Assembly: GCA_902475005.1 (NCBI GenBank)
Contig: CABRXV010000017.1
Location: 7,354-31,353, forward strand
From: an uncultured Eggerthellaceae bacterium
Lineage (GTDB): Bacteria; Actinomycetota; Coriobacteriia; Coriobacteriales; Eggerthellaceae
Direction of reading: 5' to 3'
Length of the DNA stretch: 24,000 nucleotides
The translations under genes and the position numbers were made by a program. Shown piece after piece: positions 260-13,867 of the stretch (positions are counted from its first letter, which is position 1; each line of letters starts with the position of its first letter). Under the pieces are notes generated by a model. That model was not told where the DNA came from. It saw only the letters and a program-made list of their open reading frames with translations, and did not search any database.

Positions 260-262
260 CGG

Positions 263-1099
263 GTGGCGGAGTTTCGCGCACCCCTTTGCGGGAGGCGTTC
301 TGTGAGGGGGCTTCCTTTCGCAAAGATGTCGCCTGTGCGCGAATCGGACATGTCAGTTTCGGTGCAGGAGCCCTCGTTCGGCGAAGAACTGCAGGGCTTC
401 TGCACCGTCGGGCGCAAGGCGCCCCTGCGGTTTCGCCATGAGCTCAAGCATGTGGCGAACGAGGCGGAGGCCGATATGCTCGCACAGCGGCTGGCCCTCG
501 TGCTTCCCCGCGATGCCCACGCGGGAAGCGGGGGGCGCTACCGCGTGACGAGCCTGTATTTTGAGACGCCCTACGACAAGGCGCTGCGCCAGAAGCTCGA
601 GGGCATCGATCGACGCGAGAAGTTCCGCCTGCGCTATTACGGAAGCGATACGTCGCTTGTGAAGCTCGAGCGGAAGATCAAGGCGAACGGGCTGTGCGCC
701 AAGCAAAGCGCGCGCCTTGATGCCGCCCAGGTGCGCATGCTGCTGAGCGGGTCCCATCGGTTCCTGCTCGATTGCGGCGATCCGCTGTGCGTAGAGCTGT
801 ACGCCAAGATGCAGGGTGAGCTGCTGCGTCCTCGTGTCGTGGTTCGCTATGAGCGCGAAGCGTTTTCGAGTCCGCACGGCAACGTGCGCGTGACGATCGA
901 CCGCAGCCTGAGAACGAGCTTGAGCGCGGTCGACTTCCTCGAGCCGTACGCGGGGCGGGTGCCTGCGGCCGACGGGCGGGCGGTGGTCGAGGTGAAGTAC
1001 GACGCCTACCTGCCCGACGTGGTGCGCATGGCGGTTCAGCCGCTCGCGCGCTCGGCGGCGGCGTACTCGAAGTACGCGCTGTGCCGCAGGTTCGACTGA
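263..1099 (+). CDS. VTC-domain (polyphosphate polymerase-like) protein
   Basis: The translation contains RFRHELKH...YRVTSLYFETPYDKALRQKLEGIDRREKFRLRYYG...VVEVKYD..., the typical bacterial VTC-domain pattern. The start is uncertain: GTG 263, ATG 326 or ATG 350. The end is 17 nt from the next gene. Confidence 0.8.
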   Translation: MAEFRAPLCGRRSVRGLPFAKMSPVRESDMSVSVQEPSFGEELQGFCTVGRKAPLRFRHELKHVANEAEADMLAQRLALVLPRDAHAGSGGRYRVTSLYFETPYDKALRQKLEGIDRREKFRLRYYGSDTSLVKLERKIKANGLCAKQSARLDAAQVRMLLSGSHRFLLDCGDPLCVELYAKMQGELLRPRVVVRYEREAFSSPHGNVRVTIDRSLRTSLSAVDFLEPYAGRVPAADGRAVVEVKYDAYLPDVVRMAVQPLARSAAAYSKYALCRRFD

Positions 1100-1115
1100 G
1101 CAACGAAGGAATCCC

Positions 1116-1787
1116 ATGACGTTTCAAGACATATTCACCTCCAGCTTTCTGGAGAACATGACTTCCACGTCGCTTCTCGATGCGGCGATCGCCCTCGTGC
1201 TCGCGTTCGCGCTCGGTTTGTTCATCTTCGTCATCTACCGCCGCACGTACAGCGGCGTCATGTACTCCGCAAGCTTCGGCGCGAGCCTCATCGCGCTTGC
1301 GCTCATCACGACGCTCGTCATTCTGGCGGTTTCGAGCAACGTGGTACTCTCGCTCGGCATGGTGGGCGCGCTCTCGATCGTGCGCTTCCGAACGCCCGTG
1401 AAGGAGGCGATGGACATCGTCTTCCTGTTCTGGGCGATCGCGGTGGGCATCGTGCTGGCGGCGGGCCTTCTGCTGCTGGCGGTGTTCGGCAGCCTGTTTA
1501 TCGGCGTGGTGCTGCTCCTCATCTCGACGCGCCGCAACCCGATCAACCCCTACATCCTCGTGCTCCACTGCGCGGACGGCGAGGCCGAGAAGGCAGCACG
1601 CGAGCTGGTGGGAAAGCACGCGCGCGCGGTGAAGCTGAAGAGCAAGACGATGCTTCCTGATCTCATCGAGCTCAACTACGAGGTGCGGCTCAAGGACGAT
1701 CACGCGGGCTTCCTGGGCGAGCTTGCGGCGATGCCGGGCATCAGCCATGCGGCGCTCGTGTCGTACAACGGCGACTACATGGGATAG
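1116..1787 (+). CDS. DUF4956-domain membrane protein
   Basis: ATG is preceded by GAAGGA. There are several TM helices and the LSIVRFRTPVKEAMDIVFLFWAIAVGI motif typical of DUF4956, followed by a soluble C-terminal domain. It is tightly linked to the VTC gene. Confidence 0.8.
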   Translation: MTFQDIFTSSFLENMTSTSLLDAAIALVLAFALGLFIFVIYRRTYSGVMYSASFGASLIALALITTLVILAVSSNVVLSLGMVGALSIVRFRTPVKEAMDIVFLFWAIAVGIVLAAGLLLLAVFGSLFIGVVLLLISTRRNPINPYILVLHCADGEAEKAARELVGKHARAVKLKSKTMLPDLIELNYEVRLKDDHAGFLGELAAMPGISHAALVSYNGDYMG

Positions 1788-1819
1788 CCGCTTCGAGGCG
1801 GGAGCGGGAACGGGCAACG

Positions 1820-3253
1820 GTGCTGAACAGCAGGTGGATAGAGGTGTTCGGCGCGGCGATGATGATCCTCGCCGTCGTCGGCGTCGTTGCGTTCCCTCTG
1901 TTTGGCGAGCGTATCGGTATTGCGCCGGCGAGCGCCCAACCCGCCTACCTTGACCGTCTGTTCGCGCAGGGCAGGGTGCACACGGTCGACATCCAGATGG
2001 ATGGCTGGGGCGAGATGGTCGCCGCGGCGTCTGAAGACGCGTACGACCCCTGCACGGTGGTGATCGACGGCGAGTCGTTCGATGGTGCGGGTATACGCAT
2101 CAAGGGGAACAATTCTCGCAGCTTGGTGAGCCGCTACGGGCTCGAGCGCTACAGCCTCAAAGTCGAATTCGACCACTTCAAGGAGGGCGCGAGCTATCAC
2201 GGGCTCGACAAGCTCTCGCTCGACGCGGCGTTTCAGGACAACAGCTACCTGAAGAACTACCTCGCGTACGACATGATGACGTACATGGAGGTGCCCTCTC
2301 CTGCGTGCAGCTTTGCATGGGTCACGGTGAACGGCGAGCCGTGGGGGCTGTTCCTCGCCGTGGAAGAGCCCGAGGAATCGTTCGCGAAACGCCATTTCGG
2401 ACCAGATTTCGGTGCTTTGTACAAGCCCGACTATCGGAGCCTCGACGAGGAGAACGCCGACGTGGCGCTGCGCTACACGGGCGACGACCCCGCGCTCTAC
2501 GATAACATCTTCCGCAAGGCGCTTGTGCCGGTTGACGCGTCTGATCAGCGGCGCCTGATCGAAGCGCTGCGCGTGCTGGCACAGGCGGTTCCCAGCAACG
2601 GCACGCCTCAGGTCGATCTGTCGTCTGTCGTTATGGTCGAGGAGACGCTGCGTTACTTCGTGGTGCAGTCGTTCACGGTAAACCTCGACAGCTATCTGGG
2701 GCCGACGGGCCATAACTACCTGCTCTACGAGGAAGATGGGCGCATCCGCATGCTGCCGTGGGACTACAATCTGGCGTTTGCCACCTACACCTTGGGGATG
2801 CCCGAGGCGGAAAACAACCCGGTCAAATACGTTAATCAGCCGATCGACACGCCGGCCGACGGCGCGGTGATGCGCGAGCGCCCCCTCTATCACCACCTCA
2901 TGCAAGCCGACGGCTCCTTCGAACGCTATTACGAGCTGTACGACGAGTTCATCGCGGGGTATTTCGAGAGCGGGCGATGCGAAGCGACGATCCGCGAGGC
3001 GGAGCGACTCATCGCGCCTTACGTCCAGCGCGATCCCACGGCGTTTTGCTCGTACGAGGATTTTCGGCTGGGCGTCGATGCGCTCGATCAATTCTGCGCG
3101 CTTCGTGCGGAAAGCGTGCGCGGTCAGCTCGAGGGGTCGGTTCCGTCGAGCTTCGCTGAGCAGGAGGCGGGCGTCGGAACGCTTGTCGATGCGGGCGATC
3201 TGCGGCTGACCGACCTCGGCGAGATTGCTGATCTCGAAAACGGCGTGCACTGA
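1820..3253 (+). CDS. CotH-family atypical protein kinase, N-terminally membrane-anchored
   Basis: N-terminal TM segment (FGAAMMILAVVGVVAFPLF). CotH-like blocks are present: IRIKGNNSR, SLKVEFDHF, YLKNYLAYDMM, NLDSYLGPTGHNYLLYEEDGRIRMLPWDYNLAF. The GTG start at 1820 is uncertain. Confidence 0.85.
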   Translation: MLNSRWIEVFGAAMMILAVVGVVAFPLFGERIGIAPASAQPAYLDRLFAQGRVHTVDIQMDGWGEMVAAASEDAYDPCTVVIDGESFDGAGIRIKGNNSRSLVSRYGLERYSLKVEFDHFKEGASYHGLDKLSLDAAFQDNSYLKNYLAYDMMTYMEVPSPACSFAWVTVNGEPWGLFLAVEEPEESFAKRHFGPDFGALYKPDYRSLDEENADVALRYTGDDPALYDNIFRKALVPVDASDQRRLIEALRVLAQAVPSNGTPQVDLSSVVMVEETLRYFVVQSFTVNLDSYLGPTGHNYLLYEEDGRIRMLPWDYNLAFATYTLGMPEAENNPVKYVNQPIDTPADGAVMRERPLYHHLMQADGSFERYYELYDEFIAGYFESGRCEATIREAERLIAPYVQRDPTAFCSYEDFRLGVDALDQFCALRAESVRGQLEGSVPSSFAEQEAGVGTLVDAGDLRLTDLGEIADLENGVH

Positions 3254-3507: not shown

Positions 3508-5109
3508 CTACGAGCGCGTGTTCTCGTCGCCGGTGTCGTTCATGAGGTTGGCGATGCTGCGTCCGATCTGCTCGCCGATGCGGCCGGCGGCATGGGTTGC
3601 CGCGCTGCCCGCCGCCGCGCCGAGGAAGTCGCGGCCTGCTTCGATCAGCACGTCGCGGTCGGCTTCGTCGGCGTTGCGCGCTGCTTCGCGGAGGAATCTC
3701 GCCGCGCGATTCTTGTCAACGAGCAGATCGCGCGCGTTTTCGGCCCCCGATGCTTCGATGGCGCGGAACAGCGCGTCGACGATGCGCGCCCGATCCTCGT
3801 CATCGTAGCGCCCAAGCCAATCCTGCAGCGACTTCGCCATGATCGCGGTCGAGGTCGGTAGGGCGTCGAGGTACGAGAAGTCGGTGAGAGAGCTGTTGAC
3901 CTCCCACGAGAACACGCTGTGCTGATCGAGGCCGTGTGCGCTGCTGCGCACAACGCGCGGCTCGGTGGGCGCGTGCAGCAGGATGCCGACGATCGATTCG
4001 GCGGGCACGATCTTGCGGAAACGCTCGAGGATCGGGGTGGAAGCGCGGTCGGTTGTGCGGTCGGATGCGCGATTTGTCGCACCAGCGGCAGCGCCATTGC
4101 GCGCCGCCCTGCTCGTGCGGCCGGGCGCTCCGTCGGCTGCGCCGTGGCGCGCCGCCTTGTTTGCGCGATCAACCGTGCGGTCGGCTGCGCCATTGCGCGC
4201 CGTCCTGCTTGCGCCGCTGGTTGCATCGTCGACCGCACTGCGCCCCATCGTGCCGAGCGCGCTACGGCTTTCAGCTCCGTCTGCGCCGCGGCATGTCTCG
4301 CCGTCTGCGCTGTGCTGCGCCGCTGTTTCAGCGTTTTCGCGCACGTCTTCCTTGAAGCCAGGTCCGTCGAGGTTGTATACGCGTACGATGCGATTCTGCA
4401 CGTCGGCGGGCGCATGGAGCGCTGCATACTCGGCGAGGTTGCCACCCTTTGAGTGTCCTCCAACTATGATGCGTTCGGGAAGGTAGGGCGCCGCCGCCGC
4501 AAGGTAGCGCGAAGCCTGATCCTGCGCGGGCACGGGCATGGCGTACGCCATGTTGAAGTCTTCCTTCCATCCGACGATCGACTCGTCGGTGCCGCGAAAC
4601 CCCACGAAAGCGAACATATCGCGGTAGAAGAACGTCATCGCTGCGAATTGCATCTCGCGAGCAGGGTCGAACTCGCTCAGGTAGAGGCCGACCTCCACCG
4701 CGCGGAAGCGAGGACTTGCCGCCAAGGCGAACAGGTTGCGCTTGATCTTCTCGGGGTTGAGGCCCGTGAACATGGTGGGGAAGTTCTCGGCGCGCAGCAG
4801 GTCGCGCAGGGGCACGGTGGCGGCAACGGGCTTCGCGTCATCCGCTGCGCCGATGTGCAGTAGTTGCGCGAGCCGCTTGAGGCCGCGTGCACGGGAGGAG
4901 GCGCGTTGTTTTCCGTCGTCTTCCGTAATCGGCAGAAGCGGGATGGCGCCTTCGCCGCGCACCATGCACAGCTGCGAGAGCGCAGCCGCATCGACGGGGT
5001 TGAACGGGACGTCCTCGAACGGCGCGAGCTGCTGCTCGAGGTAGTCGATGAGGTGGATCGGCGTATCGTCGGCGGTCCAGAGGTCGTTTGCGCTGGAGTC
5101 GGTGTTCAT
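3508..5109 (-). CDS. Mbeg1-like (DUF2974) alpha/beta-hydrolase-like protein with an internal repeat insertion
   Basis: FVGFRGTDESIVGWKEDF and IIVGGHSKGGNLAEYAAL (GHSKGG nucleophile elbow) are typical of DUF2974. The start is chosen at ATG 5107-5109, which has GAAAGGACG 5 nt upstream; the track ORF extends to 5136. Confidence 0.8.
   Translation of the reverse strand: MNTDSSANDLWTADDTPIHLIDYLEQQLAPFEDVPFNPVDAAALSQLCMVRGEGAIPLLPITEDDGKQRASSRARGLKRLAQLLHIGAADDAKPVAATVPLRDLLRAENFPTMFTGLNPEKIKRNLFALAASPRFRAVEVGLYLSEFDPAREMQFAAMTFFYRDMFAFVGFRGTDESIVGWKEDFNMAYAMPVPAQDQASRYLAAAAPYLPERIIVGGHSKGGNLAEYAALHAPADVQNRIVRVYNLDGPGFKEDVRENAETAAQHSADGETCRGADGAESRSALGTMGRSAVDDATSGASRTARNGAADRTVDRANKAARHGAADGAPGRTSRAARNGAAAGATNRASDRTTDRASTPILERFRKIVPAESIVGILLHAPTEPRVVRSSAHGLDQHSVFSWEVNSSLTDFSYLDALPTSTAIMAKSLQDWLGRYDDEDRARIVDALFRAIEASGAENARDLLVDKNRAARFLREAARNADEADRDVLIEAGRDFLGAAAGSAATHAAGRIGEQIGRSIANLMNDTGDENTRS
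4036..4335 (-). repeat. In-frame low-complexity insertion with about 48-bp (16-aa) degenerate tandem repeats inside the DUF2974 CDS
   Basis: The plus strand shows gc(a/t)gcgcc(a/g)t(t/g)gcgcgccg(c/t)cct(g/t)(c/t)t recurring at about 4088, 4136 and 4184. The protein reads SRTARNGAADRTVDR / ANKAARHGAADGAPGR / TSRAARNGAAAGATNR, between the GPGF block and the ILERFRKIVP block. Confidence 0.75.
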
Positions 5110-10476: not shown

Positions 10477-11949
10477 CTACAACTCCACCTTCTCCACGGC
10501 TTCAATCATGGCGCCGAAGCCTTGTTCGGCGGCGGCGACGAACTCAAGCGCGCGCTCCGAGAAACCAGCGAGCACGTTGGTGTGCGCGCCGAGGAACTGC
10601 GCGGATCCGTAGCCCTGGAGATCCCATGCGTGGCACCACACGTCGTGTCCCACCTGCGCGCGGTAGGCGTCCAGGTCGGACTGGCATGCCTTGATGCCGT
10701 GTTTTGAGAAGGGGCTCCAAGAACGAGAAGCGTTCACCTCGTTGTCTGATAGCACGATGATGCGGTCAACGTCGATTTCGTCCTTCATGAGCTCTTCGAA
10801 GGGGGCGTGCAGATCGGTCCGGCCGCCGTGTGAGTGGAGCAGGACGTTTTCGGTGAAACCGAGCAGCGACGTGGTGGGGGCGGCTTCGAGCTTTTGCGCC
10901 TCGCCGCTGAAAATATACACGTACGCGTCGTCGGCGAGCAGGGCGGCGGCAGCGCCCATGAGCGCTGCTACTTCCGAGCAGGAGACAGTCGACTTCTCCG
11001 AGATGTGCCAGGTCATCGAACCCGACCCGTCGATGAACACCGCTGTGCGCCCGGGGAGCGCGGGATAGTTGAGCGCGAGCGTGCCGAGCGCCTGGTCGAT
11101 CGCGCGCACGAGTTTGGTGCCGGCGATGCTTCGGATCTCACGGTACGCCGTGTACAGGCGGAAGGGCAGCATGCCCGAGCGCTTGAGCGCCTCTTCGTCG
11201 GCAAGCAGCTCGTAGACGGGATCAAGGTTCGCCCCCGCCTGCACGATGTTGCGCAGGTTACGCACGAGCGCCATGGGCGGCACCTGGTGCGCGGCGAGCA
11301 GGCGGTTCCACGTCTCAGCGTTGTTGCCGCAGGACGCAAGCTCGGTCTCCCACGAGGTGGGGCGTGCGAGCGTGCCCTTCACGCACCGGTCGAACGCGTC
11401 GGCCAGCGCGGGGGTCTTCGCACGGGGGTGCACGATGCGCAGGGCGTCGCGCATGGTGACGGCTTTGCCGAGCTCGCGGTACTTCGCCACGTCGTAGGGC
11501 GTGAAGTTCTCCATGGCGTCGCGCAGGCCCTTGATCATGCCGTTGGGCACCATGCGGTCGGGGTGGAAGGAGCGCCATGCGGCGATGAGGTTGGTCACGT
11601 CGTCGCCGCGGCGCACGAGGGCGCGGGTCATGGCGCGCACGATGCCCGTTCCCCGCGCGGCGTCCGATGCGGCGACCACGGAGGCGAGCATATGCGATAC
11701 CGACCGCATCATGAGCGTGTTGCGCGCGTACACGGCGAGCTTCGCCACGAAGGCGGGGTCCTCTTCGGCAAGCTTCGCCGCCAGCTCGAACGTGGCGTCG
11801 GTGGTGTCGCCGTAGAACTTGGGTTCGCCCACCATGCAGGCCGCTACGCGTGTGAGCAGCTCAGTCTTCTCAGGGTAGCGGTAGGCTGCGTGCCCCGAAA
11901 TGTTCCGGGTTTTGGGCGAGTGGGTGGTGTTGGTGTTGAACGATGCCAT
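10477..11949 (-). CDS. rsr: Ro60-related protein (TROVE domain plus vWA domain), Rsr
   Basis: 490 aa with a helical-repeat N-terminal two-thirds (GEPKFYGD..., VYARNTLMMRSV...). The C-terminal vWA domain has the MIDAS motif VFIDGSGSM. ATG 11947-11949 is preceded by GAGAGGA. Y-RNA-like elements lie directly upstream on the same strand. Confidence 0.88.
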   Translation of the reverse strand: MASFNTNTTHSPKTRNISGHAAYRYPEKTELLTRVAACMVGEPKFYGDTTDATFELAAKLAEEDPAFVAKLAVYARNTLMMRSVSHMLASVVAASDAARGTGIVRAMTRALVRRGDDVTNLIAAWRSFHPDRMVPNGMIKGLRDAMENFTPYDVAKYRELGKAVTMRDALRIVHPRAKTPALADAFDRCVKGTLARPTSWETELASCGNNAETWNRLLAAHQVPPMALVRNLRNIVQAGANLDPVYELLADEEALKRSGMLPFRLYTAYREIRSIAGTKLVRAIDQALGTLALNYPALPGRTAVFIDGSGSMTWHISEKSTVSCSEVAALMGAAAALLADDAYVYIFSGEAQKLEAAPTTSLLGFTENVLLHSHGGRTDLHAPFEELMKDEIDVDRIIVLSDNEVNASRSWSPFSKHGIKACQSDLDAYRAQVGHDVWCHAWDLQGYGSAQFLGAHTNVLAGFSERALEFVAAAEQGFGAMIEAVEKVEL

Positions 11950-12004
11950 GCGATGCCGTCCTCTCAACGAGTCGGATGTTTTCAGGCGATGTGCTGCTGT
12001 GGCT

Positions 12005-12197
12005 CAAAGCCGGCCCGGGAGCAGCATCGGATGTGTGTCGAAAGCGGTACATGTTTAGGCGCGTCTGCCGTTCCGCCACCGAACGCCGAAGCGCTCGACC
12101 GGGATTTGAACCCGGACGGTCGGTTGACCCGACCACCTGCTCCCGTAGCGAAGTAACCGCTTCCTGCGATGCCGATGTTGCTTCCGGGCCGGCTCTG
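12005..12197 (-). ncRNA. YrlA-like Y RNA, copy 1 (rsr-proximal)
   Basis: A 26-bp terminal stem (12005-12030 with 12172-12197) has 3 transition mismatches. Minus-strand T-arm CCGGG-UUCAAAU-CCCGG (12099-12115). Acceptor-like stem GAGCGC-UUCG-GCGUUC. Extra hairpin GGUCGG-GUCAA-CCGACC (12118-12134). It shares two 22-nt blocks with copy 2. Confidence 0.7.
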
Positions 12198-12218
12198 CCC
12201 GCCCGTCGCTGCTGCGTG

Positions 12219-12387
12219 GTATCGTCGGGAAAGGACGCTGGATGTGTGTCGAAAGCGGTACATTGAGCGCTCTGGCCAGCCTGAGCTACCGCGCGTCGAA
12301 ACGCACGGCTGGGATTTGAACCCAGGACCTCTCTCTCACCAGGAAGTAACCGCCTCCTGCGATGCCAGCGTCCTTTCCCGACGATGC
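12219..12387 (-). ncRNA. YrlA-like Y RNA, copy 2 (distal), with a near-canonical permuted tRNA-like module
   Basis: A perfect 20-bp terminal stem (12222-12241 with 12365-12384) is extendable to 23 bp. The minus-strand order is T-arm CUGGG-UUCAAAU-CCCAG (12309-12325), then acceptor-like stem CCGUGCGU-UUCG-ACGCGCGG (12289-12308), then U-A-GCUC-AGGCUGGCCA-GAGC D-arm (12269-12286). Confidence 0.8.
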
Positions 12388-12488
12388 GACATTCTGCCCA
12401 GAGGATCAAGAATGCTGCCTAGCTGCGTCAGGGTGCCTCATGCGGGCCCGGCTAGAAAGGAGAAAGAAGCCAGGCCCGTATCGGCTTC

Positions 12489-12602
12489 GCTGCCTCGCGG
12501 GGCGAGTGCGGGAGGCGCTCGATGCGTTAGTCGGTACGATCAACAACATGAACAGTCAGGAGGTAGTCTCAAGCGCCCTCTGCGCCCGCCCCGCGAGGCA
12601 GC
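12489..12602. repeat. Long imperfect inverted repeat / candidate structured RNA upstream of the Y RNA pair
   Basis: gctgcctcgcggggcg (12489-12504) is the exact reverse complement of cgccccgcgaggcagc (12587-12602). The arms extend to about 31 bp with 5 differences, all transitions (G-U compatible on one strand or the other). The loop is about 52 nt. Confidence 0.45.
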
Positions 12603-12760
12603 TCGCATTGCCTGTGCATATGATGCACCCCCGCCTGCAGGCGATTTGCGCAAATGGATGAGAGGGGGAGGGTAGGTGCTTAGTTGCGGCGCATGGCTGG
12701 CATGCGGCAACGTAAAGCGGCGGTTGGAAAGGGGATTTGCCCGCGCCCCTGCAAGTTCTC

Positions 12761-13867
12761 TTATCGCGCGTTCGCCTCTTCGACGTATGCGCGCATGAGC
12801 GGAAGCTGGAACCGGATGCCGTCTGGCGCTTCCTCGATCACTCCCTGTCCGAGCAGTCGATTCTTGTACTGCGTCGCATACGAGTGTGTCTTGCCGAGTC
12901 GTTGAGCGATCTCCGATACTCTGCTCGTCTCGTCGTCTGCCAGCATTGCTGCAAGAAAAGCCTTGTCGCCCGCGGAGAGGCCTTCATATGTGATGTGAAT
13001 GATGCGGTCTTTCAGCTCGGCTTCGGCAAAGCGTATTCCTGTTCGGGCGTCATTGAGGGAAATTTCCAGCTCGCTCGGATGCTGGTCCCACATGCGAAAT
13101 CCGACGAGCTGCATCATGAAGGGGAAACCTTCCGATGCACGGACAGCGAGGTTGAGAGCATCTTGGCCTATGGTTCGTCCCGCTTCCTCGATGGTCTTTC
13201 GTATGGCGCTTTCGACGTCGTAGTCGGCGATTCTTCCGAGATGGCACTTCTGCGCGCGACGGAGAAACGACACGGTTTTGTCGGTCTCGAGAGCCAGCAT
13301 GTTGTGCGGAAGCCCTGCCATAAGAAGCGCCACTCTGCGATTGTCCATGATGAGCAGCTGATACACCGCCGCAAGTTCAATCATCTCAGAAAGCTTCGGT
13401 TGAACCTCGTCCACGAGGATAAGCAAGCCGACGTCTTTGCTTTCGAGCTGATCAAGCAGTTCCGTCATCTCGTTTCGCCAGTTCGTCGGACGGGATGGTG
13501 CCTCCCATTCTGCCCCTATGAACTGCCCGATCGACAGCCCGGACAAACGGGCTTTTTCGCTGTCGTCGAGAAGGTGGGCGGCGGCGCGTCGCGCGGAGAT
13601 GAGAATATCATCGAGCATCCCAGGTAGAGCAACGGTTTTCACGGCGATCCAACCGCACTGCTCGGCTTCTTCGGCGACAAGCGAGAGAAGCGCGGTTTTG
13701 CCGGTGCCTCGAGCTCCCGTGAGGATTGTCGTGAGGTTGGGGTGTCGCTTGGTTGATCTAAGGGCTCTCTTCAGATCATTGAGAACGACCGTGCGACCAG
13801 CCATGTGGGCAGGCACTTCTCCGAACGTTGGGGTGAACGGATTCTCTTCGATGGTCGGCGTGCTCAT
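12761..13867 (-). CDS. AAA+ ATPase (Orc1/Cdc6-like or archaeal-ATPase-like) with C-terminal winged-helix DNA-binding domain
   Basis: Walker A ILTGARGTGKTALL and Walker B LLILVDEVQ. The C-terminal segment SAGDKAFLAAML...VSEIAQRLGKTHSYATQYKNRLLGQGVI is wHTH-like. ATG is preceded by AAGGAG. GC content is visibly lower (about 52-55%) than the flanking genes. Confidence 0.8.
   Translation of the reverse strand: MSTPTIEENPFTPTFGEVPAHMAGRTVVLNDLKRALRSTKRHPNLTTILTGARGTGKTALLSLVAEEAEQCGWIAVKTVALPGMLDDILISARRAAAHLLDDSEKARLSGLSIGQFIGAEWEAPSRPTNWRNEMTELLDQLESKDVGLLILVDEVQPKLSEMIELAAVYQLLIMDNRRVALLMAGLPHNMLALETDKTVSFLRRAQKCHLGRIADYDVESAIRKTIEEAGRTIGQDALNLAVRASEGFPFMMQLVGFRMWDQHPSELEISLNDARTGIRFAEAELKDRIIHITYEGLSAGDKAFLAAMLADDETSRVSEIAQRLGKTHSYATQYKNRLLGQGVIEEAPDGIRFQLPLMRAYVEEANAR

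Follow-up and report, generated by a model that had tools for sequence, protein, structure and literature searches.

A probable stand-alone Ro60/Rsr locus with YrlA-type Y RNA elements upstream of rsr in an uncultured Eggerthellaceae bacterium

Bacterial Y RNAs are encoded close to rsr, the gene for the Ro60 protein Rsr. Chen et al. (2014) have identified 355 YrlA-like RNAs, distributed over 254 bacteria and 22 phages and at most 4 kb from rsr on the same strand, and have described YrlB-type partners in all three species studied (PMC4201824). In Mycobacterium smegmatis, YrlA and YrlB both lie 5' of rsr, share a single precursor and are independent of RtcR, and in Deinococcus radiodurans a polycistronic precursor yields the Y RNAs, whose genes are likewise upstream of rsr (PMC4201824). 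Here, we describe an rsr gene preceded by two tandem RNA elements in a 24,000-nucleotide stretch of contig CABRXV010000017.1 (hereafter the window) from an uncultured Eggerthellaceae bacterium. The locus is very probably a stand-alone Ro60/Rsr ribonucleoprotein unit with YrlA-type Y RNAs 5' of rsr. An earlier reading of the DNA, referred to as the original prediction, had proposed a YrlA-type Y RNA and Rsr locus, and the TROVE and vWA_Ro60 domains of the protein, a sub-threshold match to the YrlA family and covariation among relatives support this proposal. The features that carry the argument are as follows.

10477–11952, minus strand: rsr, encoding the Ro60/Rsr protein of 491 amino acids (TROVE ring and vWA domain with a DGSGSM metal ion-dependent adhesion site (MIDAS) motif).
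12005–12197, minus strand: Y RNA copy 1, adjoining rsr, of the tRNA-Leu-like, class II subtype (inverted repeat I2, score of covariance model R1, D-arm comparison, ARAGORN, orthologues).
Copy 1 stem: basal stem arms 12197–12172 and 12030–12005; 5' module 12171–12150; 3' module 12052–12031.
Copy 1 head: variable-arm hairpin 12134–12118; T arm 12115–12099; UUCG-capped acceptor-like stem 12098–12079; D arm 12076–12061.
12216–12390, minus strand: Y RNA copy 2, distal, of the canonical YrlA-like, class I subtype (inverted repeat I1, Rfam YrlA, R1, conservation in the sister species L049).
Copy 2 stem: basal stem arms 12390–12365 and 12241–12216; 5' module 12364–12343; 3' module 12263–12242.
Copy 2 head: T arm 12325–12309; UUCG-capped acceptor-like stem 12308–12289; D arm 12286–12269.

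The minus-strand coding sequence encodes an Rsr protein with TROVE and vWA domains, as originally proposed. A Pfam scan of the open reading frame (ORF) 10477–11967 matched TROVE (PF05731, 75.4 bits, E = 6.7e-21) and, at the C-terminal end, vWA_Ro60 (PF25045, E = 2.5e-10), and 852 homologues share these two domains. The MIDAS motif DxSxS is present as DGSGSM within VFIDGSGSMTW, and its residues Asp-308, Ser-310 and Ser-312 are invariant in an alignment with 19 homologues. Among solved structures, the protein matches a TROVE protein (9l5y/9kop, E = 2.5e-28), RO60 (9nen, E = 1e-4) and D. radiodurans Rsr (2nvo, E = 8.6e-4). Since the alignment of the 19 homologues begins with MA..N, the true start of rsr is the ATG at 11952 (MASFN...), which is preceded by the Shine-Dalgarno sequence GAGAGGA at 11959–11965.

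The two upstream elements were originally put at about 170–195 nucleotides with terminal stems of 23–26 bp, and a repeat search agrees with this. A 26-nucleotide inverted repeat with 92% complementarity (12216–12241 and 12365–12390) delimits the 175-nucleotide copy 2, and another with 88% complementarity (12005–12030 and 12172–12197) delimits the 193-nucleotide copy 1. The same search revealed 24-nucleotide direct repeats common to both elements (100% and 96% identical); between the copies, the stem modules agree at 24 of 24 and 23 of 24 positions. The basal stems are unrelated in sequence and nonetheless pair in both copies, and compensatory changes distinguish the copies in the basal, acceptor-like and anticodon-like stems. 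The 441-nucleotide Y RNA region folds with −218.9 kcal/mol (z = −7.3 against shuffled sequences). In each RNA, a basal stem of about 21–26 bp is followed by a bulged C with two pairs (CUGG(C)AU / AUCCAG), a CGCAG internal loop, a helix (GGARGCGGU / ACCGCUUUC), a conserved UUAC and then the tRNA-like head. The module shared by the two copies, reached via the bulged C, reads 5' GG(C)AUCGCAGGARGCGGUUACUUC / 3' AUGUACCGCUUUCGACACACAUCC and, by analogy, is taken as the counterpart of the region of known Y RNAs that binds Ro60. The apical head has the arm order of a circularly permuted tRNA, with an optional variable arm, a T arm, a closed acceptor stem and a D arm. The T arms are CUGGGUUCAAAUCCCAG and CCGGGUUCAAAUCCCGG, and the D arm of copy 2, UAGCUCAGGCUGGCCAGAGC, is of the near-invariant YrlA type (GCUC...GAGC); the T arms, the UUCG-capped stems and this D arm were all found at the places originally given. 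Copy 1 deviates from the YrlA type in having a tRNA-Leu-like D arm (GCG...CGC). For copy 2, an outer 4-bp pairing in the Rfam alignment (GGUG/UACC) was dropped in favour of a CGGU/ACCG helix, because the latter covaries in 64 sequences and shows a GC to AU change in the sister species.

Conservation was assessed in relatives of Rsr, represented by 41 loci from genomes and, in addition, by assemblies that encode closer homologues. Motif scans show one to four tandem elements ahead of rsr on its strand, with 5' ...CAG(C)AGUGCAGAnnnCGGUUACUUC and 3' CCGnUnUCGnCnAUUCUCUG, most of them with a T arm and a D arm inside and some with a short insert only. Element ends estimated by RNAduplex on the flanks were noisy and were superseded by a covariance model, R1, built from an RNAalifold consensus of 18 aligned elements in which 25 of 32 pairs show compensatory changes. 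With filters off, R1 finds copy 1, which was outside the seed, at 69.9 bits (E = 1.8e-17); the next-best match in the window scores 10 bits, and all significant matches are on the minus strand. A search of 486 kb from 45 sources on both strands gave 65 matches, and all 65 are located just upstream of rsr on the same strand, with one to four per locus. Both copies in the window and all of these matches thus lie within 4 kb of rsr on its own strand, as do the RNAs of the published survey. In the R1 alignment of relatives, 95.6% of the paired cells pair, compared with 39–53% when partners are slid; double changes are seen in 29 of 32 pairs; and the covariation score is 0.595 compared with 0.06–0.12 in slid controls, values reached by none of 500 shuffles. 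Fitting the alignment to the model biases it toward structure, but the margin is large. Pairing amounts to 99.6% in the T arm, 95.2% in the acceptor-like stem and 95.5% in the D arm (double changes in 4/5, 5/5 and 4/4 pairs, respectively) and to 92% in the basal helix (9/9 pairs). In agreement with this, the sister species L049, whose Rsr is 87% identical and whose gene order HAD, RNAs, rsr, hom, lysA is that of the window, differs in copy 2 by a change of the helix from GCGGU/ACCGC to ACGGU/ACCGU and of a basal-stem pair from A-U to G-C. A lack of covariation in orthologous loci would have spoken against the original prediction, and it is this strong covariation of the stems and of the T and D arms that was found instead.

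Several results weigh against the assignment to YrlA-type Y RNAs. At gathering thresholds, Rfam has no match in the whole window (the YrlA cut-off is 69 bits), and copy 1 does not match the YrlA family (RF02553) even at E ≤ 10. The R1 score of copy 2 (111.9 bits) is not independent, because this copy belonged to the seed. The published 5' motif GNCGAAN0-1G is represented in the window only by the variant AUCGCAGG at the equivalent position, and a consensus promoter scan of 11800–12900 found no sigma-70-type site. On the other side, a permissive search ranks YrlA as the best RNA family for the core of copy 2 (12340–12257, 34.2 bits, E = 1.6e-5, aligned with model positions 16–93). The YrlA affiliation is thus seen in Rfam for copy 2, below threshold, and not for copy 1. 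Since 12 related Coriobacteriia loci also have no YrlA match at the gathering level, the Rfam model under-covers this clade, and copy 1 is invisible to the model because of its tRNA-Leu-type (class II) D arm and its long variable arm. Relatives show a graded series of 5' motifs, namely GCCGAAG (L001), GCCGUAG (L004 and L005), GCCGCAG (L008 and L044) and GUGCAGA (Clostridia), alongside AUCGCAG of the window.

The 10-mer CGGCAUCGCA of the 5' strand of the Y module reappears on the minus strand at the rsr start codon (11949–11958), within GACGGCAUCGCAUGGCAUCG (11941–11958). It is invariant in L043 and L049, and L051 has CGGCAUCG at the same place. Rsr could use this site for autoregulation on its mRNA, or the site could be what is left of a Y RNA.

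The copies are separated from each other by 18 nucleotides and copy 1 from the rsr ATG by 52 nucleotides, copy 2 being 264 nucleotides upstream of the ATG. A scan of 11800–12900 found no terminator-like site, and these short spacers without such a site support co-transcription of the copies with rsr. The same arrangement raises the question of whether the structures act merely in cis, as parts of a long 5' leader of rsr that serve stability, processing or autoregulation, rather than as stable trans-acting Y RNAs bound by Rsr: the elements lie directly 5' of rsr with neither a terminator nor a recognisable promoter in between, and the module 10-mer recurs at the start codon. A leader would not, however, need two different tRNA mimics, and the architecture occurs in one to four tandem copies with freely varying terminal stems and with full tRNA-like cores as in validated Y RNAs, which are themselves processed from precursors that include rsr-proximal transcripts (PMC4201824). 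A leader function alone is therefore improbable.

The long terminal inverted repeats might instead mark miniature inverted-repeat mobile elements or other repeats whose 26-nucleotide ends act at the DNA level. Sister species differ in whether they have copy 1, and this strain carries an unrelated AAA ATPase gene inserted just upstream. The terminal repeats of the two copies are nevertheless unrelated in sequence, neither the window nor the rest of the examined loci contains further copies, and wobble pairs together with strand-specific covariance model scores indicate selection at the RNA level, so that an origin as mobile DNA is very improbable. Copy 1 is absent in the sister species L049 and present in the more distant L051, suggesting that it was lost in the sister lineage.

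ARAGORN finds no tRNA gene in the native sequence of the window, including either element, and the Rfam tRNA model has no match in the window. ARAGORN takes both heads as tRNAs only once they are circularly permuted and given an engineered anticodon stem-loop in which the three native pairs are kept; it then assigns copy 2 to class I and copy 1 to class II, the latter having a variable arm of 6 bp and a D stem of 3 bp. Among 19 real tRNAs compared, the D arm of copy 1 (UGGCGGAA-CGGCAGACGCGC) is nearest to tRNA-Leu, being identical to E. coli leuV (UGGCGGAAUUGGUAGACGCGC) at 18 of 21 positions, and the D arm of copy 2 is nearest to the Arg, Thr and Ile types. This closeness of the T and D arms to tRNAs, above all that of the copy 1 D arm to tRNA-Leu, and the proposed origin of Y RNAs from a dimeric tRNA (bioRxiv 10.1101/312249) would also suit decayed tandem tRNA pseudogenes that lie beside rsr by chance. 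But the failure of both detectors on the native sequences, the permuted arm order and the compensatory upkeep of stems over dozens of loci, always linked to rsr, are not expected of pseudogenes, and we give this explanation hardly any weight.

Compared with a class II tRNA-Leu, copy 1 thus shares the leuV-like D arm, the 3-bp D stem and the 6-bp variable-arm hairpin, but it has neither an anticodon loop nor a free CCA end, its acceptor stem is closed by UUCG, its arm order is permuted, and its native form is not recognised as a tRNA. Leu-type heads also occur beside rsr in L043, L051, L005 (a Coriobacteriaceae metagenome-assembled genome (MAG)) and L038 (a Bacillota MAG). The Rsr of L051 is 64% identical to that of the window, and the variable arm of its Leu-type head covaries fully. 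A pattern consisting of GTTACTTC, a T arm and a Leu-type D arm, which the Rfam YrlA model misses, was found in 65 metagenome contigs (L052–L116) and 13 IMG/VR contigs (L117–L129); within the DNA examined, 17 of these 78 had a TROVE gene that could be detected, in each case on the strand of the pattern. The metagenome sources comprise lakes, soil, sludge, marine samples and rumen, some of the IMG/VR contigs are 170–376 kb long, and many of the stretches hold several partial tRNA-like matches. Long class II-like variable loops are already known in YrlAs, and the near-invariant D stem, from which the Leu-type D arm departs, has been stressed in the same work (bioRxiv 10.1101/312249). No description of a Leu-type D arm in Y RNAs was found in the literature, of which our coverage is incomplete, and the Leu-type head possibly represents an undescribed Y RNA subtype. 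Both head types are carried by the window and by L005, with Rsr-binding modules that are near-identical and heads that differ, a combination that would fit the recruitment of different tRNA-binding effectors to Ro60 by the heads.

Clostridial relatives show further features of the head. In L022 (808–878), L014, L015, L016, L024, L026 and L040, the hairpin between UUACUUC and the T arm consists of a 5-bp stem, a 7-nucleotide loop and a 5-nucleotide linker and resembles an anticodon arm followed by a variable loop; ARAGORN calls a 'tRNA-Arg(tct)' within the L022 Y RNA. Chen et al. (2014) name this hairpin the variable arm (PMC4201824), and its structural role may need to be revisited. In L014 (5490–5642), L015 (5329–5482) and L009 (495–649), the acceptor-like stem is closed by an ACCA or GCCA loop, equivalent to a discriminator base and CCA, in line with the published dimeric-tRNA origin of YrlAs.

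The original prediction was right about the two elements but overlooked both the distinct tRNA-Leu-like subtype of copy 1 and a conserved third hairpin upstream of copy 2. The region upstream of copy 2 contains the following features.

12483–12606, minus strand: candidate third Y RNA of 124 nucleotides without a tRNA-like core, YrlB-like (weak R1 alignment; conservation in L043 and L049).
12444–12477, minus strand: small hairpin of 10 bp whose loop is rich in pyrimidines (UCUUUCUCCUUUCU), located between copy 2 and the long hairpin (fold; L043 and L049).
12615–12655, minus strand: conserved block at the 5' edge of homology, candidate promoter or operator of the Y RNA–rsr unit (homology with L043 and L049 starts here).

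The hairpin at 12483–12606 has an 18-bp basal stem, a CGCAGAGGGCGCUUGA motif, an inner helix and an apical region of about 50 nucleotides. It aligns weakly on the minus strand with the R1 stem module (9.0 bits; E = 0.28 window-wide and 0.004 in the 370-nucleotide spacer), with CGCAGAGGGCGCUU in place of CGCAGGAGGCGGUU, and 3 of its 34 pairs show compensatory changes among three sequences only. Both this hairpin and the small one are kept in L043 and L049, where the flanks diverge. The changes in the small hairpin are mostly compatible with wobble pairing, and it is not terminator-like because it has no U tract. Head-less Y RNAs are present in relatives, for example in L015 (5489–5582), L023, L037 and L001 (5687–5825). 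Since the R1 score is just 9 bits, the long hairpin is only a candidate, and whether it is a third Y RNA is tentatively judged about an even call. A broader proposal, namely that the Y RNAs fall into distinct tRNA-identity classes (class I-like and Leu-like class II) and form a three-member set together with the head-less upstream hairpin, is rather unlikely. The conserved block contains a palindrome, TTTGCGCAAA (12654–12645), which is kept in L043, present in L051 and partial in L049 and L050 (CTTGCGCAAA); the block or its palindrome may be a promoter or operator of the Y RNA–rsr unit.

A different arrangement is seen in L002 (an Atopobiaceae MAG), where a head-less Y RNA-like element (4107–4204, R1 38.9 bits) is directly followed by a HEARO RNA (4209–4419, Rfam 133.8 bits), the pair being located about 1.6 kb upstream of rsr. 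This suggests that a HEARO-associated mobile element was inserted into or beside a Y RNA array.

These observations and the analogy with described systems lead to a plausible working model of the Rsr–Y RNA unit. The long hairpin RNA, the two YrlA-type Y RNAs and the rsr mRNA would be made as a single minus-strand transcription unit that probably starts near 12650, and the small RNAs would be cut from the precursor, plausibly at the bases of the 20–26 bp terminal stems. By analogy with D. radiodurans and Salmonella, Rsr would bind the stem module, and the tRNA-like head would tether an effector, which in those organisms is the exoribonuclease PNPase. The complex would degrade or remodel RNA that is structured or damaged, and entry into the Ro60 ring may in addition be controlled by the Y RNA. 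The class I-like head of copy 2 and the tRNA-Leu-like head of copy 1 may recruit different tRNA-binding partners.

Pfam scans of the 17 other plausible ORFs in the 24 kb of the window found no rtcB, rtcA or rtcR, as had been noted originally. The original placement between amino-acid biosynthesis genes does not hold on the far side, where the immediate neighbours are an AAA ATPase gene and a HAD hydrolase gene, metA and a gene for a Cys/Met pyridoxal phosphate (PLP) enzyme being farther off.

12761–13867, minus strand: AAA_16/AAA_22 ATPase gene, directly upstream of the Y RNA region.

The ATPase gene is absent in L043 (97% identity) and in L049 and L050 (87%), where the HAD hydrolase gene abuts the RNA region; its third-position GC content is 0.63 compared with about 0.85, and its exact protein sequence belongs to a cluster of 55 member sequences. 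It therefore looks like a strain-specific insertion and not a part of the Rsr–Y RNA system. At 260–3253 on the plus strand, genes for a VTC-domain protein, a DUF4956 protein and a CotH kinase-like protein stand in a row and are unrelated to the Rsr–Y RNA locus. In the more distant L044 (Rsr 50% identical), rsr lies amid many small ORFs without Pfam matches and the Y RNA 3' module, UCGACCCACGCC, is similar to UCGACACACAUCC of the window. These surroundings may be a phage or mobile element; a comparison of the neighbours with PHROGs gave two weak matches of unknown function and did not establish a phage context.

The Rsr–Y RNA system is already well described, and the locus is otherwise an ordinary example of it. 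It extends the range of Ro60/Y RNA loci to Coriobacteriia and Clostridia of gut and rumen, with arrays of one to four Y RNAs that go unannotated at the Rfam gathering threshold, and it provides the Ro60-binding stem module of this clade with a structure backed by covariation. The tRNA-Leu-like head offers a handle on the question of which tRNA-binding factor the YrlA head recruits, and two heads on one shared Rsr-binding module provide a natural experiment for effector pull-downs.

The closest counterpart is the M. smegmatis rsr locus, which likewise has an actinobacterial Ro60 gene, at least two same-strand Y RNAs on its 5' side and no link to RtcR or rtcBA. Placement of the RNAs 5' of rsr without Rtc partners, which the original prediction had implied to be unusual, is thus not so: given this precedent (PMC4201824), it is the norm outside enterobacteria. 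One of the M. smegmatis RNAs has a T/acceptor/D core and the second lacks a full core, whereas the window holds two full cores of differing types. The acceptor-like stem has 8 bp and is closed by UUCG in the window, compared with 7 bp and RNase P cleavage in M. smegmatis, and the 5' motif is CGCAG compared with CGAAG. YrlA of Salmonella Typhimurium (RF02553; structure 6cu1; bioRxiv 10.1101/312249) shares the Ro60-binding stem and the circularly permuted tRNA-like head, in which the T and D arms are conserved and the acceptor stem is closed, but it is encoded in an rsr-yrlBA-rtcBA operon under RtcR, a context absent in the window. Unlike Salmonella YrlA and the Rfam family, the window RNAs score below the gathering threshold, and the CGGU/ACCG helix, which covaries strongly in relatives, replaces outer pairs of the anticodon-like stem in the Rfam YrlA structure. 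The Rsr–Yrn1–PNPase complex of D. radiodurans (RYPER) serves as the mechanistic model, in which a Ro60 ring, a Y RNA stem bound to it and an apical module tethering an exoribonuclease act together, although Yrn1 differs from the window RNAs in its arm order and has only a partial D arm.

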